Part shown: positions 8,217-55,292 of the stretch, in pieces | How the letters are laid out: each line of letters opens with the position of its first letter | How positions within the stretch are numbered: position 1 is the first letter of the stretch | Assembly: GCA_009729775.1 (NCBI GenBank) | Contig: GCA_009729775.1_4081.1 | DNA from: Escherichia coli | Lineage (GTDB): Bacteria > Pseudomonadota > Gammaproteobacteria > Enterobacterales > Enterobacteriaceae | Reading direction: 5' to 3' (one strand) | DNA length: 64,000 bases | Program-made: the position numbers and the translations under genes | The notes under the pieces: model-generated | What the model was told of the DNA's origin: nothing | What the model saw: the letters and a program-made list of their open reading frames with translations, nothing else | The model's database searches: none

Positions 8217-8257
8217 GTATATATTTCCTTTTGTTGGATAAAATCGTTTAAGTTTCT

Positions 8258-8286
8258 ATTATAGCCAATCCGTGGGCAAAAGTAAA
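8258..8286 (-). promoter_or_regulatory. sigma70 / T4-early-like promoter
   Basis: Minus strand: -35 (C)TTTACT, 17-bp spacer, -10 TATAAT, about 40 nt upstream of AAA+ ATPase start 8216. Confidence 0.45.
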
Positions 8287-8324
8287 GGAACTGTGTTAAA
8301 ATAATTTAACTTATCAGTTCCTTT
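8284..8324 (-). repeat. perfect 10-bp inverted repeat (stem-loop) overlapping promoter -35
   Basis: AAAGGAACTG ... CAGTTCCTTT with 21-nt loop; no adjacent T-run. Confidence 0.5.
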
Positions 8325-8529
8325 GTTACTTCATGAATCATCCGTGTGTTTAAAAGGTAAATCTCTTTGCTGTCTTGATGTGAACATTATATCACATCGT
8401 TTCAACTTGTCAATCACTTTTTTTCTTTTTTTTCAAACTCACATCTTGTGTCGCTTGAAAACTTTATGTCTGATGCTTATTGTATCACATCATTCTATCT
8501 TGTCAACATTTATTTTTAATTCATTTTTC

Positions 8530-12954: not shown

Positions 12955-15062
<2,108 letters not shown>

Positions 15063-15073
15063 TCATTATCTCC

Positions 15074-15850
15074 TTAAAATCCTACACTACCAAAAACACG
15101 ATCAATGATATCTAAACCTTGATTGACATTTTCAGGTAAAAGTGAATTAATTCTGGTACTATACATTTCTTCAATGTTATCAAATTGTATACAATTATCT
15201 GGTTTGATAGTCACTACCATTTCAACTGGAGAACTTGAACTATAGTCTAATGAATCGTATGATATGTTTTGAATAACACATCCGGTTAAAACAAAGTATT
15301 CCATAACACCAGCACTGTTATAAGAAGAACCACCAATAAATTGATCTACTGCATTTACTAAGCCAGCATTATTTGTTGCAGCAGTTGCAGCATCTACTAG
15401 TGTATCTCTTCCTAGATTTTCTAGTGTATCATCTGAGTTACGACCACTCAACATCTGTATAACTAAACCAAATTTATAAGAACCATAATCTTGGTCATTT
15501 CTTGAAGTTATTCTGCGTTGAAAGTCAAGTTGTTTTTGTAGTTGGCGTGATAATGCTTTTGCTGATGCATTTCCAACTGAATCACGTATAGATATAGTAA
15601 TTGGTTCCCAATCATGACTACCTATATAGGAAGTATTAGTTGTAAATTGATATAGTTTATGAGTACTAAATGTTACAGTAGGTCTATCAATTTTATCAAC
15701 ATCTAATGCGATGTGATCACGTTCATCTATATCAGTACCGAAATTATACACAATAACACGAAACTTGTATTTTGCTTTCGGTTGTAGCATTGAACGATTA
15801 CGCCCCGATGGTAAAGGAACGCCATATTTATTAATCATGTTATTTGCCAT
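15074..15850 (-). CDS. putative tail tube protein, paralog 2
   Basis: 258 aa; clear paralog of 15945..16631 (shared N-terminus YGVPL...KQPKAKYKFRVI); position immediately downstream of sheath gene. Confidence 0.45.
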   Translation of the reverse strand: MANNMINKYGVPLPSGRNRSMLQPKAKYKFRVIVYNFGTDIDERDHIALDVDKIDRPTVTFSTHKLYQFTTNTSYIGSHDWEPITISIRDSVGNASAKALSRQLQKQLDFQRRITSRNDQDYGSYKFGLVIQMLSGRNSDDTLENLGRDTLVDAATAATNNAGLVNAVDQFIGGSSYNSAGVMEYFVLTGCVIQNISYDSLDYSSSSPVEMVVTIKPDNCIQFDNIEEMYSTRINSLLPENVNQGLDIIDRVFGSVGF

Positions 15851-15885
15851 AGCAACCTCTTTTTATTTTATAAGGCATTATACTT

Positions 15886-15892
15886 TATTTAG
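15886..15892 (-). promoter_or_regulatory. late-promoter-like CTAAATA element
   Basis: Minus-strand CTAAATA about 36 nt upstream of ATG 15850, followed by AAAGAGG SD. Confidence 0.35.
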
Positions 15893-15902
15893 CATAAAAA
15901 AA

Positions 15903-15922
15903 GCCCCGAATAGATTCGAGGC
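15903..15922 (-). terminator. rho-independent terminator between the tube paralogs
   Basis: 7-bp stem (one mismatch) GCCTCGAA/TTCGGGGC on minus strand followed by TTTTTTT. Confidence 0.55.
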
Positions 15923-15944
15923 TATATATTAAGTTTAAATAAAA

Positions 15945-16631
15945 TTAATTTTCGTAGAAGTTACTATCTGGTAGAGTAGTACTACTAATATTAGTTTGTG
16001 CACCAGAAATAGAGGTAGCAGTTGATGGATTACCGAAACCACTAACTTCATCACCGAACGCTTCGCCATTTGGACCCAATTTAGCACAACCATCTGGTTG
16101 AACTGTCATTGAAATAACTTGTGCTTCACTTGAGGAATAATCCCAATCACCAAAGTTGCTGGATTCAATAAAGCAACCTTGACATACCCAAGTACTCAAT
16201 GTTCCTTCAAACAAGTTTGTTGTATTTTCACTATTAGAACCATCAAGCTCTTGAATCCACATTTCAAATTTAAATTGTGAATCTGTCATGCGAGATTCTT
16301 GACTGTAGTAGTTAAATTCTTTACGCATTTGGTTGTATAGTGCTTTAGCAGAAGCATTACCTACAGAGTCACGGAAAGCAACATCAATTGTATCCCAAGT
16401 GTATTTCCCTTTGTAGTGTGCAGAACTGTTGTAACTATGAACAGTGACGTTTTCATGTGATACAGATACTGCCCCAACTGTATTGGTGTCTAGTGTAATC
16501 ATATTACCATCATCATTAGTACCAAAACCAAAGAAAATAACACGAAATTTGTATTTTGCTTTTGGTTGTTTCATAGAGATACGACCACCGCCAGCGAGCG
16601 GTACGCCATATCGATCAAGCATTGTAGCCAT
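15945..16631 (-). CDS. putative tail tube protein, paralog 1
   Basis: 228 aa; paralog of 15074..15850; first gene after the sheath intergenic region. Confidence 0.45.
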   Translation of the reverse strand: MATMLDRYGVPLAGGGRISMKQPKAKYKFRVIFFGFGTNDDGNMITLDTNTVGAVSVSHENVTVHSYNSSAHYKGKYTWDTIDVAFRDSVGNASAKALYNQMRKEFNYYSQESRMTDSQFKFEMWIQELDGSNSENTTNLFEGTLSTWVCQGCFIESSNFGDWDYSSSEAQVISMTVQPDGCAKLGPNGEAFGDEVSGFGNPSTATSISGAQTNISSTTLPDSNFYEN

Positions 16632-16666
16632 TTATATTCTCCTATTATGGAATGACATCTTTATAT

Positions 16667-16674
16667 TATTTATC
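16667..16674 (-). promoter_or_regulatory. late-promoter-like GATAAATA element
   Basis: Minus-strand GATAAATA about 36 nt upstream of ATG 16631; GGAG SD. Confidence 0.35.
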
Positions 16675-16821
16675 TATCTGGAAGTATATTTTTAATTAAC
16701 TAAAGTGTCATCAACAGGGAACCAATTAATATTAACACAATATAAGTATCTTTTTCGTTTAGTGTGGTCAATATAGTTTACTGATATAGACCATTTTCCA
16801 TTTGTGTATACTTCGTATTTT

Positions 16822-16947
16822 TCAATTATACCGACAATCTTCTAAATTTTTTAAAAATATATTTAGTATGTGTATTGATTCTAACTGAGTTAAAACTATT
16901 TTACTGACATCTTGTATTGTTCTTTTTAGTATTTCTTCCATATCCAT
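16822..16947 (-). CDS. possible small ORF (41 aa) in sheath-tube intergenic region
   Basis: ATG at 16947 preceded by AAAGGGA 5 nt upstream; below the 60-aa track cut-off; may be spurious. Confidence 0.25.
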   Translation of the reverse strand: MDMEEILKRTIQDVSKIVLTQLESIHILNIFLKNLEDCRYN

Positions 16948-17000
16948 AATGTCCCTTTATAACATCAATATAAAGGTATTTAATTTTAAACAATAAAAAA

Positions 17001-17018
17001 GGGAACCAAAAGGTTCCC
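17001..17018 (-). terminator. rho-independent terminator after tail sheath gene
   Basis: Perfect 7-bp stem GGGAACC/GGTTCCC, 4-nt loop, followed on minus strand by TTTTTT; 9 nt past sheath stop. Confidence 0.7.
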
Positions 17019-17026
17019 TTAGTGTT

Positions 17027-19690
17027 TTATTGAGTTTTTTCGATACGGATTGGTACGTAAATGAAGTTAATACTCTTAGTTGGTTGGATTGCAATATCCA
17101 TCCAAAGTTCATTACGGTCAATACGCTCTGCGGTATTGTTACTTTCATCACAAACTACTGCGAAGTTATAAAGACCCTGTTGTTGAACAATTTCAGCCAA
17201 GAAACTATTAACTACACCACTAAATTCCTGACGAGTACTTGGAGTATTCAAACGGAATAGGAATGGTTCGGAAATAATTTCTAGTTGACGACGAATATAA
17301 ACAACTAAACGAGCAACGTTAACACGACTTAGTGCAGAAGTTTGATTAGCAGATAGAGTTTTATCTCCATAAACAAGCAAACCACGGTTAGGACGCATTG
17401 CAATTGGGTTAATGTTGTTAGTATACATAACGTCACGTTGACCTTGGTTATATACTACTGGTTGATATTCACCTTCGCTGTTGATAAAACCAGTACTTGC
17501 AGCGTTTGTTACAACACCACGAGTTGTACCAGCAGGTGGATACCATACATAACTAACACTATCGCTATATGCATATGTACGCATTGCAATAGTACTACCA
17601 GGAACTGCAACCTCTTCACCATCAACGTTAGTACTTAGACACCAACCCATATACTGAGCAGCATAATCATAAGCAGTTGTACGACCAACTGAACCGTTAC
17701 TTGGTGCATTGTTAGCATTAGTAGCCCATTGTTGTACAGCACTACCGTTTCCGGTTGGATTCAAACGTGCTGGAACGTCAGTAACAATAAATGCAGTTTC
17801 TTTACGATCAGTGTTTAAAGTTACACATTCATCAAGTGTTTCAACATAACCAGGTACACAAATTAGGTTAAAATCAATAAATTCAGAACGAATGTCATCA
17901 TTACCAATAATAACAGCAGCTAGTGCTTCAACTACTAGTTGACGTTGTGCAGCACGACCAAATAGGCCAGCACCATCAAGACTTACACCACTAACAACTT
18001 CCCATTGACCATTAACCATTTTCTTAACAACACCTTCAGTGTTACCTAGGTCAACAGCAAGCATACCATTTTGATACAATGCCGCAGCAGGAACTTGGCT
18101 TGGGAAATTAAAGTCTTGGAAAATCATACCATTTAGTGTACTTTGGTCAGTACTGTCAAGTTTAACCCATTCACCATCAACGTTACGATAGAAATCATAA
18201 CCATCAATGCCTTGAGACAAAGGACAAACCCAAATTAAACGGTCAGCCGCTGGTTCATCAACTTGTACATATTTGTTTTCTTCTTGTACTAGATCCCATT
18301 CATCATTAGCAACATCAGCAACATACATAGTTACAGTTAGATTATCGGAGTTCCCGAAATCATACCAGAGAGTTCCTTCTTTTGCTACACTACGTGGTAC
18401 TGAATAACTAACACGGAAGTTATTAACGTTAATTAGAGAGTAGTTGTTACTATCTACTGTTAGTTTTTGTAGTTCAGATTCAGCAAAAATATCATCACCA
18501 CTTTGTGTGATTTTGAAACTGTAACCTTTTGTATTGGAAACAACTAAACCACCATTAGTTTCACGTTTAAATTTAAAACCATCGTTAATAATTTCAGCAT
18601 TTGCATTTAGATTATTGATGATAGTTTGGGTATTAATAACACCGCCTTGTGGAACTGCTAGTACTTTAACTGATTTATTCAAATAAACAAAAGTCATATA
18701 ACTATCAGCACCTGCTTGTTCAATAATAGTTTCACCAAGTGGCAAAGCAGGAGCACTAATTGTTGTTAGTTTTGCACTTTGAATATAGAAAGAGAAACTC
18801 TTACTATCTTCATCAAAACGAGATGCGATATAACTATTGTTTAGTACACCACTTTTCGCTTCAATTTCTTGGAATGAATTACCAGTATATGCTGGTACAA
18901 TATTCCAAACTTGAGTTAGGGATGCATAACGTTTAATAACAAAACGAGTACCAAAATAGTTTGAACCATTTTGGGTGTAACCATCACGAATCCAAATGTT
19001 ACCTTTTTCTACAGTTGAGCCAACTGGAACTTTGTTAATTGGTGATAGGTAAGTTTCCATTTGCACTAGCCCAGAAGCAGAACGTTTATACATTAGCATC
19101 TGACCATTGCTTGGTTTGTAACGTAGAACTAAATCATCAACATTTAAACCTACTAGACTTACATCTTCAACTTCTTCAGCACTTACAATAGTTACTGGCT
19201 TAAGTTGCCAATCATAAAAACTGCTTGGACTATCTTTCTTCGCTACATACGCTTCTACTTGTGATTGTGCGGTATCAAACCACAAAGTACCATTGGATAC
19301 TGGGCCAGTTGGTGCTTCAGCACTTGGTGCTAGTTGTGCTAGATCGATATCAGCACGAATTACATATGCACGGTTAGTAATGCCTAGATAAGAATATACT
19401 GCATGTAGGCCATATTCGTTTAGTTCATCACCTTGAACAACAGAACCGTTATTCATTTGAAAAATTGGTGTACCATAGGTATCAAGTGAACTTTTTTGTG
19501 ATGTTAGAAGCTGTAGTTTTCCAGCGTTTGCTTTAGTAGTTCCCGCAGCTATTGCACTGCTTCCTGGGACAAGTTTGTCTTCAGCAGTAGCGATTACAAA
19601 TAGTGGTACAGTGCCAGGAGCAGCAGCGGTACTCATACTTTCATCAGTTACTGAAATGGAAACGCCAGGTGAGAGTAGATCTCCTGCCAT
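17027..19690 (-). CDS. tail sheath protein (T4 gp18 family)
   Basis: 887 aa; N-terminal LLSPG motif and C-terminal block VVCDESNNTAERIDRNE...IQPTKSINFI match the T4 gp18 signature as recalled; GGAGG SD. Confidence 0.93.
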   Translation of the reverse strand: MAGDLLSPGVSISVTDESMSTAAAPGTVPLFVIATAEDKLVPGSSAIAAGTTKANAGKLQLLTSQKSSLDTYGTPIFQMNNGSVVQGDELNEYGLHAVYSYLGITNRAYVIRADIDLAQLAPSAEAPTGPVSNGTLWFDTAQSQVEAYVAKKDSPSSFYDWQLKPVTIVSAEEVEDVSLVGLNVDDLVLRYKPSNGQMLMYKRSASGLVQMETYLSPINKVPVGSTVEKGNIWIRDGYTQNGSNYFGTRFVIKRYASLTQVWNIVPAYTGNSFQEIEAKSGVLNNSYIASRFDEDSKSFSFYIQSAKLTTISAPALPLGETIIEQAGADSYMTFVYLNKSVKVLAVPQGGVINTQTIINNLNANAEIINDGFKFKRETNGGLVVSNTKGYSFKITQSGDDIFAESELQKLTVDSNNYSLINVNNFRVSYSVPRSVAKEGTLWYDFGNSDNLTVTMYVADVANDEWDLVQEENKYVQVDEPAADRLIWVCPLSQGIDGYDFYRNVDGEWVKLDSTDQSTLNGMIFQDFNFPSQVPAAALYQNGMLAVDLGNTEGVVKKMVNGQWEVVSGVSLDGAGLFGRAAQRQLVVEALAAVIIGNDDIRSEFIDFNLICVPGYVETLDECVTLNTDRKETAFIVTDVPARLNPTGNGSAVQQWATNANNAPSNGSVGRTTAYDYAAQYMGWCLSTNVDGEEVAVPGSTIAMRTYAYSDSVSYVWYPPAGTTRGVVTNAASTGFINSEGEYQPVVYNQGQRDVMYTNNINPIAMRPNRGLLVYGDKTLSANQTSALSRVNVARLVVYIRRQLEIISEPFLFRLNTPSTRQEFSGVVNSFLAEIVQQQGLYNFAVVCDESNNTAERIDRNELWMDIAIQPTKSINFIYVPIRIEKTQ

Positions 19691-19740
19691 ATTAAATCCT
19701 CCAAAAATAATTGGTTATTCGAAATATATTCGTATAGTCT

Positions 19741-19748
19741 TATTTATT
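19741..19748 (-). promoter_or_regulatory. late-promoter-like AATAAATA element
   Basis: Minus-strand AATAAATA about 51 nt upstream of sheath ATG 19690. Confidence 0.35.
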
Positions 19749-19784
19749 GAAGGATTTAATTGTCCAGTCCTTATTGTTTATAAT

Positions 19785-20411
19785 TTATGTATTAGAATAA
19801 ATAATGTCCATTGCTTTTTTATGTAAATCATCAATAGTACTGTTATTCTGTACAATTATATCAGGATTGTTTATTCCAATCCAAGCCCACTCAGATTCGT
19901 GTACTGATTCTAGTTCAACTGGTTTAATATTAATATCCCCTTTATTATAAGAGGCAGCCAAACCATACCAATGTGGTAGAACACGTTGAACTTCAATAAT
20001 AGTCCCATTATTCGATCTAATCATTTTTAATTCATTTGGAAAACGGCAATCAGTGATGATAATATTTCCATCTATGTCTTGCATTGATTTTTCTAAACTG
20101 AATACCCAAATATCATTATGAAAATACTTACGCAAAATATTAGTACCATAATTCTGCAATACCCATCGAGGGGATACATCATTACGACCTAACTTATCAC
20201 ACCAGTACTGATCCGGTTCTTCACGAATCTTACGACTTTCCTTAGTTGACCCCTCAAGCATTTCACGGTCCCATCCAAAGATGGCAGCAACTGAATCTTT
20301 TAGATTGGTTGCGAATGACATTCGTGTGTAACCATTATTAATAAAAGATTCACCAAATGTATCTTTACCACTTCCAATAGTTCCGTTAATTGCAATTATT
20401 TGTCTTCCCAT
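19785..20411 (-). CDS. deoxynucleoside monophosphate kinase-like P-loop kinase
   Basis: 208 aa; P-loop INGTIGSGKDT at N-terminus, resembling T4 gene 1 dNMP kinase. Confidence 0.75.
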   Translation of the reverse strand: MGRQIIAINGTIGSGKDTFGESFINNGYTRMSFATNLKDSVAAIFGWDREMLEGSTKESRKIREEPDQYWCDKLGRNDVSPRWVLQNYGTNILRKYFHNDIWVFSLEKSMQDIDGNIIITDCRFPNELKMIRSNNGTIIEVQRVLPHWYGLAASYNKGDINIKPVELESVHESEWAWIGINNPDIIVQNNSTIDDLHKKAMDIIYSNT

Positions 20412-27423: not shown

Positions 27424-28383
27424 TTAGAGTGAACTTAACAACAAATCTGCTCGGTTTGTAACTTGACGATACCATAAGGAATTCATTATTTCTTTTTTAA
27501 ATTTCTTAGGGTTATCATTTTTTACACTGTTCCAAAGTTTATTAAACGAAGCTAACTTATCTACTCCCATTGTATAGCACATTTCAAAAAGAATACGTTG
27601 TTGTTCTTTGGTCAGATTTACTGCTTGTTTTTTCTGCATCAATAATAAAAAGTCATCATATGTTCTTTTCATATCTTGCATTAAAAGTTTGTTGGCTTGA
27701 GCTTTGGTAATACCGTTTCTGTACTTGATAGCATCAGATTCTTTTCTTCCCAAATAATGCCCATAACCGATTGTATAATTACCTTTCATATCCTTGTAAG
27801 GATGAAATTTAGAATTGTGGAAAGGAACTCCGACTTTCCCACCAAGTAAACGGCGTTTGTTCTTGGACTGAAATTCAATTGAACCTTCAGCTTCTTTGAT
27901 GTGATTGACAATTTCTGGATCATTATAATCAAACTGTACAGTCACATCTGGTAACAATACGTTCTTCAAATCCTCTTTTGTTGGGATAAAGATACCCTGA
28001 GAAGTATGAAGAGTAGCATTTAAATTGATATTTTTCAACAAAATAACATACTCTTCAAGTTGTACATTTTTAGGTTTAAACTTTTTAGCAATAGAATAAT
28101 AACTATCACCAGGTTGAACCGTATAATGCTTCTCGCCGCGTGGAACATCCTTTGATATTTCTACCTTTGGTAATTCCTGCTTTTGAATTTGCGTAACTTG
28201 TGGTTTTAAATTGTGTACCTGACTTTCGTCCGATGATGATACACGATCATTTTGAGAAAAACCATAAAATCCAATCGCAGCGACAAGTACTGTGCAAACT
28301 AGAACACCATAAGTAGTCTTAGTTTTCAGTGCTTTTTTCGCTTGTTTCAAAACGCCTCCTTTGTTGATTGTTAAGATGGGCAA
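27424..28383 (-). CDS. membrane-anchored LysM + T4-lysozyme-like (GH24) protein, endolysin candidate
   Basis: 319 aa; N-terminal hydrophobic segment; LysM (HYTVQPGDSYYSIAKKF); C-terminal GNYTIGYGH...lysozyme-like region resembling T4 e. Confidence 0.7.
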   Translation of the reverse strand: MPILTINKGGVLKQAKKALKTKTTYGVLVCTVLVAAIGFYGFSQNDRVSSSDESQVHNLKPQVTQIQKQELPKVEISKDVPRGEKHYTVQPGDSYYSIAKKFKPKNVQLEEYVILLKNINLNATLHTSQGIFIPTKEDLKNVLLPDVTVQFDYNDPEIVNHIKEAEGSIEFQSKNKRRLLGGKVGVPFHNSKFHPYKDMKGNYTIGYGHYLGRKESDAIKYRNGITKAQANKLLMQDMKRTYDDFLLLMQKKQAVNLTKEQQRILFEMCYTMGVDKLASFNKLWNSVKNDNPKKFKKEIMNSLWYRQVTNRADLLLSSL

Positions 28384-28518
28384 TCACAAAGATGGCAAAG
28401 AGGCCATTTGCAAAAGCCTCATCGGACTTTCTACAGTACAAAAACGTTCTTTTCAAATGTTTAAGTAGTATAGCATATTTTTATTTTATTACAAGACATA
28501 TTTACTGTAAAAACCACA

Positions 28519-54702: not shown

Positions 54703-54927
54703 CTACTTATTATTTGGGTTTGGTATACAGTACACATATACTAGATTACTAAAGTGTTCAGTACTGGAATATTTTGCTAACTCAGTAATGTGAAAGTTCT
54801 TGTCATAAAACCTTCCACTATTGAATGTTGTTATTTGGCAACAATGTATAGGTCTGAAAATATAATAATAAAATATATCATTTTCAACTACAACAGTATG
54901 GTTTGTATAACGCTCGATTTTCTTCAT
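54703..54927 (-). CDS. hypothetical protein (74 aa)
   Basis: ORF in track. Confidence 0.4.
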   Translation of the reverse strand: MKKIERYTNHTVVVENDIFYYYIFRPIHCCQITTFNSGRFYDKNFHITELAKYSSTEHFSNLVYVYCIPNPNNK

Positions 54928-55292
54928 GTGTGGATAATTTCCTTAACCCCGTATTCCATAATTGCTAATGTGCAAATTTCACATGGTTTAGCAGGTACAG
55001 GAATACCATCTTTACTTATCCGTGCAATCAGTAAAGTATGAACATCAGCACGTGCAGCTAATAAGCAAGAAATTTCAGCATGGAGAAATTCACCTTGTGG
55101 ACGTCCAGCACGAATTGCAAAACCTTTCTGTACTGGATGTGTCTGTGTATAAGAATTTGTGCGTGTTGCCAGTACTCGACCTTTTTTATCCAGTGCACGA
55201 GCAATCACACGATACCGCTTGTAGTTCCCTACTTGCTCAATAGGTGGCATCCGGCGTAATTCTTCAACAAGTTTCTCCAATTTACTATTCAT
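54924..55292 (-). CDS. compact CDA-fold zinc-dependent deaminase
   Basis: 122 aa; HAE and PCEIC zinc-binding motifs of cytidine/deoxycytidylate deaminase superfamily. Confidence 0.6.
   Translation of the reverse strand: MNSKLEKLVEELRRMPPIEQVGNYKRYRVIARALDKKGRVLATRTNSYTQTHPVQKGFAIRAGRPQGEFLHAEISCLLAARADVHTLLIARISKDGIPVPAKPCEICTLAIMEYGVKEIIHT

Follow-up and report, generated by a model that had tools for sequence, protein, structure and literature searches.

Tail-tube paralogs, conserved transcription signals and a split small gene in the sheath-tube region of a RaK2-like jumbo coliphage

The 64,000-nucleotide (nt) stretch of DNA analysed here, called the window throughout, was deposited within an Escherichia coli assembly (GCA_009729775.1, contig GCA_009729775.1_4081.1) and is assigned by sequence similarity to Asteriusvirus, that is, to a RaK2/121Q-like jumbo coliphage among the RaK2-like jumbo myophages with genomes of about 350 kb. 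In a sequence search, its region 13900-19800 shares 99.7% identity with Escherichia phages slurp01 and G17 and 98.8% with phages 121Q and PBECO4, and phAPEC6 is 98.9% identical to the window. On the minus strand this region reads, in order, a tail sheath gene, a terminator, a 395-bp spacer, a first tube gene (tube1), a second terminator, two further tube genes (tube2 and tube3) and a gp4-like gene. With moderate confidence we read it as a conserved tail-tube expression module, in which tube1 would build the trunk of the tube and tube2 and tube3 would supply specialised rings, joined to a hotspot spacer that carries a small gene split between two reading frames. The tube module is an ordinary conserved one, and both the 'tail tube protein' labels and the terminators of phage G17 were already annotated. 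The element that had not been reported is the split small gene with its CGG junction. The features discussed are listed below, with protein lengths in amino acids (aa) and open reading frame abbreviated as ORF.

17027..19690, minus strand: tail sheath gene, 887 aa (Pfam Phage_sheath_1C 1.7e-14; PHROG 10581; annotated as tail sheath in 121Q and G17)
16995..17020, minus strand: terminator-like hairpin and T-run 3' of the sheath gene (9-bp stem with 5 GC, free energy (dG) -14.4; hairpin at 17020-16999)
16632-17026, minus strand: sheath-tube1 spacer, 395 bp, from the ORF list
16822..16947, minus strand: frame A of the small inserted gene, a 41-aa ORF whose conserved start is the second ATG, at 16941
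16828..16836, minus strand: TGT-CGG-TAT junction, candidate +1 frameshift site, invariant in the four sublineages that share the frame break
16692..16832, minus strand: frame B (+1) continuation of the small gene, 46 codons and a stop, free of ATG, GTG and TTG
16666..16674, minus strand: late-promoter-like box GATAAATAA, 41 nt upstream of the tube1 ATG
15945..16631, minus strand: tube1, 228 aa (PHROG 4542 5e-86; PHROG 45 5e-4)
15896..15923, minus strand: terminator-like hairpin and T-run 3' of tube1 (9-bp stem, dG -12.1; hairpin at 15923-15902)
15885..15893, minus strand: promoter-like box GCTAAATAA, 41 nt upstream of the tube2 ATG
15074..15850, minus strand: tube2, 258 aa, predicted tube-fold paralog (PHROG 4542 8e-80; AlphaFold2 model)
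13968..15062, minus strand: tube3, 364 aa, predicted divergent tube-fold paralog with N- and C-terminal extensions (PHROG 13438)
13540..13968, minus strand: gp4-like head completion gene (Pfam Tn7_TnsA-like_N 2e-16; PHROG 218 head closure 1.8e-40)

Three tail-tube paralogs

An earlier note, made from the letters of the window alone, had described two paralogous tube-like genes. The paralogy stands, as tube1 and tube2 are 31% identical (E=1e-34), match the same 'tail tube protein' family (PHROG 4542) and are true paralogs by sequence, but the count was one short, a third paralog being encoded at 13968-15062. T4 gp19 matches PHROG 4542 at 5e-10 and T4 gp3 and gp54 do not, and tube1 and tube2 are thus gp19-type proteins. 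The family of tube3, which matches PHROG 13438 and more weakly PHROG 4542 and 45, aligns over its core with the tube1 family (profile-profile probability 95.7%, E=9e-9) and the tube2 family (97%, E=8e-11), and on the strength of these profiles and of its structural model tube3 is the third tube-fold paralog. The RefSeq label 'tail tube protein' is already carried by all three genes in 121Q.

The AlphaFold2 model of tube2 has a mean predicted local distance difference test score (pLDDT) of 70, rising to 80-90 in the core, and shows two additions that tube1 lacks, a C-terminal helix and, at residues ~135-180, a low-confidence helical insert (about 45 aa). When this model was used in Foldseek, all top matches were tail tube proteins (best E=1e-8). 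With E values of 1e-8 to 1e-5, they include the tube of cyanophage A-1(L), the gp54 homolog of a T4-like Klebsiella phage, the PVC and AFP tubes, T4 gp3, T4 gp19 and the phiKp24 tube. The tube3 model (pLDDT 61.5) has a good core at residues ~60-270, flanked by 28 N-terminal and 90 C-terminal disordered residues, and superposes on T4 gp54, gp3 and gp19. The two models retrieve only tube-fold proteins of the contractile-tail tube/Hcp type, which places them within the double beta-sheet tube/Hcp fold. For tube1 the same fold is indicated by its homology to tube2, and the suggestion in the earlier note that both of its paralogs would be tube proteins is upheld in this way. No match was found for the tube genes in Pfam, nor did phmmer and hmmsearch with all three paralog families retrieve a sequence match to a solved structure in the PDB. 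Identification of tube3 as gp48, gp54 or gp19 was attempted by comparing its profile with the single T4 sequences and was rejected in all three cases. No specific sequence homology to T4 gp54, gp48 or gp3 was detected. Tube3 happens to have the same length as T4 gp48 (364 aa), yet no homology between the two is detectable.

All three paralogs are virion proteins when mass spectrometry (MS) data from relatives are taken together, although the peptide counts indicate detection only and are not quantitative. In phAPEC6 virions, tube1 (gp275c, 25.1 kDa) was found with 2 peptides, tube2 (gp274c, 28.8 kDa) with 3 and tube3 (gp273c, 40.4 kDa) with 7 (PMC7247149). RaK2 virions yielded 5 peptides of tube1 (gp042) and 3 of tube2 (gp043), with tube3 not detected (Table S3), and CBB virions yielded 6 of tube1 (CBB_205) and 9 of tube3 (CBB_207), with tube2 not listed. 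The expectation in the earlier note that both of its paralogs would be found in virions is thus borne out in phAPEC6 and RaK2. The PA5oct orthologs gp287 and gp286 carry an electrospray tandem MS (ESI-MS/MS) flag in their sequence record.

Roles and history of the paralogs

Clusters of tube-fold paralogs in which one protein builds the trunk and others form specialised rings are well known, as in T4 (gp19, gp3, gp54 and gp48) and in AFP and PVC. Tube1 is probably the major tail tube protein, and its hexamers would stack into the trunk. Five points argue for the trunk role. Its gene is of the gp19 type and comes next after the sheath gene, an order shared with T4 and phiKp24, and of the three paralogs it is the least decorated and slightly the most conserved. 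PA5oct has retained this copy, and a promoter box and a terminator of its own enclose it. The tail of phAPEC6 has 25 hexameric sheath rings (PMC7247149), so about 150 trunk subunits would be needed to line them, and tube1 would supply these copies.

Tube2 and tube3, with their extra helices and extensions and their position behind a terminator, would most likely be specialised ring proteins present in few copies, placed at the baseplate end as T4 gp54 and gp48 or Pvc5 and Afp5 are, or at the neck end as T4 gp3 is. The best reading of tube3 is as the older specialised ring protein, resembling T4 gp54 or gp3. Placement at an end of the tube is suggested by its N- and C-terminal extensions, its ancient pairing with the tube gene and the lack of any other annotated gp3, gp48 or gp54. 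The last point refers to the 121Q annotation at 266-315 kb (49 kb downstream, a part of the genome), where no homolog of the three is annotated, so those ring roles are otherwise unfilled there. The structural scores of tube3 do not separate an initiator role (gp54- or Pvc5-like) from a terminator role (gp3-like).

An alternative is that tube1 and tube2 co-assemble as alternating or mixed trunk subunits, the duplication having produced a heteromeric tube. Both are gp19-type proteins of one PHROG, each has its own promoter-like box, and both occur in virions with similar peptide counts. We consider a heteromeric tube improbable, as the two genes are parted by a terminator in the eight RaK2-like phages compared, tube2 carries the 45-aa insert and the C-terminal helix that tube1 lacks, PA5oct builds its tail without a tube2 ortholog, and the solved tails matched by the models (T4, phiKp24, A-1(L) and PVC) have a single trunk protein and specialised end rings.

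The history of the genes is best read from PA5oct. Its gp287 (206 aa), which is without the tube2 insert, resembles tube1 (37%, E=1e-33) more closely than tube2 (E=1e-28), and its gp286 (492 aa) is the ortholog of tube3 (99.7% probability). Since PA5oct has only tube1-like and tube3-like genes, tube1 and tube3 would be the old pair and tube2 a younger duplicate of tube1. A tblastn search with tube1 found two places per genome in RaK2-like phages of enterobacteria, Xanthomonas and Vibrio, and one place each in PA5oct, Atu_ph07 and XacN1. On present sequences, tube2 is best read as a clade-specific duplicate of tube1 decorated with helices.

Yersinia phage fHe-Yen9-03 encodes a 134-aa mini tube-like paralog between sheath and tube1 (L022 4044-4448; PHROG 4542, 1.8e-8), with an N-terminus, LLDKYGIEL, like that of tube1, and by sequence this is a fourth tube-family gene in that genus. 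In Vibrio phage 2.275.O (L020 5275-8157), a pectin-lyase-fold gene and a reverse-strand gene lie between both tube copies and break the tandem. Taken together, the extra paralog in the one phage and the interrupted copies in the other suggest that copy number at the tube locus is still changing.

Conserved terminators and promoter boxes

The intergenic sequences were compared between the window and phages EJP2, RaK2, GAP32, CBB, PHA46, XaC1, Yen9-03, Vibrio 2.275.O and PA5oct. Throughout this set, PA5oct included, a hairpin followed by a T-run stands at the same two positions, 3' of the sheath gene and 3' of tube1. The stems vary between genera (GGGAACC, GGAGCC, GGGGCTT, GCACCC, GGCGCC and others), and a hairpin that keeps its position with differing stems is the pattern expected of conserved structure, not sequence. 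Both predicted terminators have the GC-rich hairpin, the following T-run and the preserved structure of an intrinsic terminator, and both are also annotated in phage G17 by ARNOLD. The strong terminator that the earlier note had placed after the sheath gene (here a 9-bp hairpin and T-run at 17020-16995) and the one it had placed between the tube genes (15923-15896) were both recovered. Terminator-like sites number 7 in the region, where shuffled sequence gives 3.4 +/- 1.8.

A TAAATA box (nnTAAATA) precedes tube1 by 39-49 nt in all compared relatives. The box before tube2, GCTAAATA, is invariant in the window, EJP2, RaK2, GAP32, CBB, PHA46, XaC1, Yen9-03 and the metagenomic contig L025. In the window, a TAAATA box lies 41 nt upstream of both ATGs, in agreement with the late-promoter-like motif that had been proposed for each tube gene, and a further box, AATAAATAAG, lies upstream of the sheath gene at 19749-19739. 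The complete layout of terminator, [A/C]TAAATA box, tube1, terminator, GCTAAATA box and tube2-tube3-gp4 is found in eight RaK2-like phages, the window included, from at least six genera. PA5oct shares both terminators and the box before tube1.

On the gene strand of the window, 10 of the 18 [A/C]TAAATA sites fall 20-60 nt upstream of start codons, where 1.0 would be expected, and the gene starts concerned are 12387, 12927, 15850, 16631, 19690, 21582, 23314, 33952, 37205 and 50591. An ATAAATA late motif has been reported for CBB and GAP32, and in CBB it was found at 35 sites before structural genes and likened to the T4 late promoter (PMC5259590). Exact T4 late promoters were considered for the window and rejected, since the T4 octamer TATAAATA is depleted, not enriched, occurring once in the 64 kb (both strands) against about 11 expected from shuffles. 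The tube-gene boxes read GATAAATA and GCTAAATA, and neither has the exact -10 sequence of a T4-type, gp55-dependent late promoter.

Taken as working signals, these elements would define three late transcription units. An intrinsic terminator would end the sheath unit, and a T4-like late box would then drive tube1. The second terminator would close the tube1 unit, and the GCTAAATA box would restart transcription for the packed tube2-tube3-gp4 group, in which tube2 and tube3 are 11 nt apart and the tube3 stop shares one base (13968) with the start of the gp4-like gene. Such terminators would insulate high-output genes from low-copy ones. Separate units for sheath, tube1 and tube2-tube3-gp4 are plausible from these sequence signals. 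The earlier note had suggested that separate units might set the stoichiometry of its two paralogs, and here the conserved terminators and boxes fit, but the paralogs are more likely to be functionally distinct, one major tube protein with specialised ring proteins, than interchangeable subunits. A known RNA in the gap or in the intergenic regions was also considered. An Rfam scan at E<=1 returned only sub-threshold matches driven by the terminators, and the idea was dropped.

The sheath-tube1 spacer as an insertion hotspot

In EJP2, RaK2, GAP32, CBB, PHA46, XaC1 and Vibrio 2.275.O, the gap between sheath and tube1 spans only 100-135 nt, taken up by the terminator and the late box, and in the window these two elements stand about 290 nt further apart. 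Since related genera manage with 100-135 nt, the long gap represents a lineage-specific gene insertion and not a regulatory spacer. The insert is restricted to 121Q-like Asteriusviruses, among which it occurs in five diverged versions with 69-77% DNA identity, while the flanking proteins are about 97-100% identical. In Yen9-03 the spacer is occupied by the mini tube gene. Judged from these gene orders, insertions recur in this spacer, a hotspot bounded by the sheath terminator and the tube promoter.

Other occupants of the spacer were seen in further relatives. PA5oct has a 538-aa Hef-like homing endonuclease gene in the same spacer (L004 3296-4912), and in metagenomic relatives the spacer is filled by two or three small genes, encoding 72-81 aa (L025 3739-4470; L023 1514-2026). 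These include a second small family, represented by L023_74 and L025_72 (E=3e-13).

Three other origins of the insert were examined and set aside. A decayed homing endonuclease is not indicated, as no product of any frame gives a Pfam or PHROG endonuclease signal, and a small-gene family was found instead. A fragment of a tube gene, like Yen9-03 g200, is contradicted by an hhalign probability of 0.15% against the tube family. A repeated or mobile element does not fit blastn results, which give one place per record, the unverified CMSTMSU assembly excepted.

A small gene split by a +1 frame break

The possible 41-aa ORF that the earlier note had pointed out in the 395-bp gap is present and extends further than was seen. 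Frame A (MEEILK...LEDCRYN, then a stop) is conserved in five diverged Asteriusvirus sublineages. Frame B, which lies +1 relative to A and reads GIIEKYEVYTNGKWSISVNYIDHTKRKRYLYCVNINWFPVDDTLVN*, is conserved too and has no ATG, GTG or TTG in any lineage. Frame B alone was searched against 1.84 billion proteins and retrieved uninterrupted 81-aa proteins that span both halves (P0191, P0196 and P0192). One of these is encoded at exactly the same locus in an A4-like contig, in the order sheath, 81-aa ORF, tube1, tube2, tube3, gp4. By these comparisons, the insert carries a gene of 81-84 aa that is intact in related metagenomic phages and is split here by a +1 frame break. When the two halves are joined conceptually, the products of seven phages give a gap-free alignment with 19 invariant residues, 14 of them in the frame-B half. 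The CMSTMSU copy, from an unverified record with several frame errors, was left out. The 81-aa family has no match in Pfam, PHROG or the PDB.

Both halves of the small gene are under purifying selection. Nei-Gojobori estimates among four sublineages give a ratio of nonsynonymous to synonymous divergence per site (pN/pS) of 0.44 for part A in frame A, compared with 1.0-1.5 in the wrong frames, and of 0.31 for part B in frame B, compared with 1.1-1.2. Variable columns at codon positions 1, 2 and 3 number 22, 9 and 28 in part A and 12, 15 and 27 in part B. At synonymous sites the small gene (pS 0.43-0.78) has diverged about as much as the sheath and tube1 genes on either side (0.24-0.52) or somewhat more, which implies that the lineages separated after the frame break arose. 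No stop codons have accumulated within frame B in any lineage.

The two frames must join within a 20-nt overlap that holds the invariant TGT-CGG-TAT. In the 94 predicted genes of the window, CGG is used 4 times in 19,420 codons (0.21 per 1000), and GGT, the codon read in the +1 frame, 740 times (38 per 1000). The intact homologs contain no CGG codon. Three of the four in-frame CGG codons of the window lie in a single 122-aa ORF (54924-55292, minus strand), which may be a recent acquisition or a frame called in error. Phage A4 has its first junction in frame, CGG having become GGG with a 1-nt deletion, and an extra C before a GGT 17 codons downstream creates a new break, GTT-CGG-TGT. If that extra C is skipped, the reading returns to WSVGV..., as in fEgEco12 and the intact homolog.

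Frameshifting or decay

Two conserved frames, a second frame that lacks a start, a rare codon in the 0 frame and an abundant one in the +1 frame are together the sequence pattern of a programmed +1 frameshift, and TGT-CGG-TAT is a candidate site for one. Tentatively, we propose that the small gene is translated through a +1 ribosomal frameshift. It is likewise possible, and is put forward with the same reserve, that the shift is efficient and conserved and that it is triggered by the near-unused CGG directly before the glycine codon GGT. Transcriptional slippage was rejected as the cause of the frame change, there being no homopolymer run within the overlap. The frame junction also overlaps a sigma-70-like match (TTAAAA-18-TATAAT, 10/12) at 16825-16854 on the minus strand, and nucleotide conservation at CGGTATAAT could in part reflect a promoter rather than a recoding signal.

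The chief competing explanation is decay. The small gene would then be a pseudogene left over from an inserted 81-aa gene, and the +1 break an inactivating indel. In favour of this, indels do occur in the gene, with -1 and +1 changes elsewhere in the A4 copy and one additional base close to the 3' end in UE-S1 and ph0011. Constraint is weaker by a factor of about ten than that on the genes at either side (pN/pS 0.3-0.4 against about 0.03), the gene is absent from most RaK2-like genera, and its product is not in the phAPEC6 virion protein list. What speaks against decay is the persistence of the same break in four sublineages whose synonymous sites have diverged so far, yet whose pN/pS stays at 0.31-0.44 in the correct frames against 1.0-1.5 in the others. 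A decaying gene would also have to account for joined products without gaps and with most of their invariant residues beyond the break, for a break that falls exactly at a codon used 4 times in 19,420, and for a frame B that is free of stops in every lineage. We regard decay as only slightly less likely than a frameshift. It is unlikely that frames A and B encode two separate peptides, with frame B translated from a non-canonical start or by termination-reinitiation. In the window and in Turkey5 a frame-B ATT does overlap the frame-A stop (ATTGA and ATTAA), but frame B lacks ATG, GTG and TTG in all lineages, the frame-A stop of fEgEco12 and UE-S1 lies 9 codons further downstream, past conserved frame-B residues, and the intact homologs are single 81-aa proteins across both halves.

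Likeness to known systems

The natural comparison is the T4 module of gp18 sheath, gp19 tube, gp3 terminator and the gp54 and gp48 baseplate-tube junction. As in T4, a tube gene comes next after the sheath gene, across a short spacer that holds a late-promoter box, several tube-fold paralogs with probably distinct roles are present, and gp1-like and gp4-like genes lie in the neighbourhood. The earlier note had contrasted the window with T4 on the grounds that the T4 tube gene follows the sheath gene directly and is single-copy, and both contrasts were overstated. A gap of 116 nt with its own late promoter separates T4 genes 18 and 19, and gp19, gp3 and gp54 are all tube-fold proteins in one PHROG (PHROG 45). 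Genuine differences are that the paralogs of the window form a tandem cluster whereas those of T4 are dispersed around the genome, that the window has strong predicted terminators after sheath and tube1 whereas the corresponding sites of T4, where late boxes precede genes 19 and 20, lack them, that the box is [A/C]TAAATA in the window and TATAAATA in T4, and that tube3 is without detectable sequence homology to gp48 or gp54.

The AFP and PVC particles offer a parallel in their tube (Afp1/Pvc1) and adaptor ring (Afp5/Pvc5). Unlike them, the genes of the window belong to a T4-like phage lineage and encode larger proteins with extra helices and extensions, for which placement in rings is inferred. 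In phiKp24 (PDB 8bfk), the tube protein gp119, seen by cryo-electron microscopy (cryo-EM), is encoded directly after the sheath protein gp118 and has an enlarged tube fold with extensions (PMC9700779). This tube is a structural match to the tube2 and tube3 models. In contrast to the case made here, the phiKp24 paper fits one tube protein and discusses no paralogs (PMC9700779), and the sheath and tube sequences are of a different lineage.

For the small gene, the closest precedent comes from the mitochondria of glass sponges, in which a +1 frameshift occurs at inserted rare TGG or CGG codons before glycine codons (Haen et al., reviewed in PMC5633667 and PMC5009743). The rule has been explained by out-of-frame pairing in the A site (PMC5633667, PMC5009743), and Ty3-type pairing of this kind is a further parallel. 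The junction in the window resembles these sites in that an extra base lies immediately 5' of a conserved glycine GGN, creating a near-unused in-frame CGG, and in that the break persists through long divergence. It differs in being a candidate site in a phage gene read by E. coli ribosomes, and in that the gene is small, non-essential and less constrained.

Elsewhere in the window, two long stretches without an ORF of at least 45 aa were noted in a crude gene call, 27924-28518 (595 nt) and 8217-8529 (313 nt).

Significance

In the primary literature the tube went unassigned, as the RaK2 paper put forward other proteins and the phAPEC6 paper makes no mention of a tube (PMC7247149). The tube assignment would give cryo-EM model building of the unusually complex RaK2-like tails a testable parts list, made up of a single trunk protein, its young and decorated duplicate and an older paralog with extensions, each behind conserved transcription signals. 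Without translation, the small gene would be an ordinary insert in decay at a hotspot. Translation would make it a simple and genetically tractable +1 frameshift site in E. coli, with a rare codon beside an abundant one, which would allow direct tests of the out-of-frame-pairing model and would represent a natural hungry-codon recoding site in a phage.

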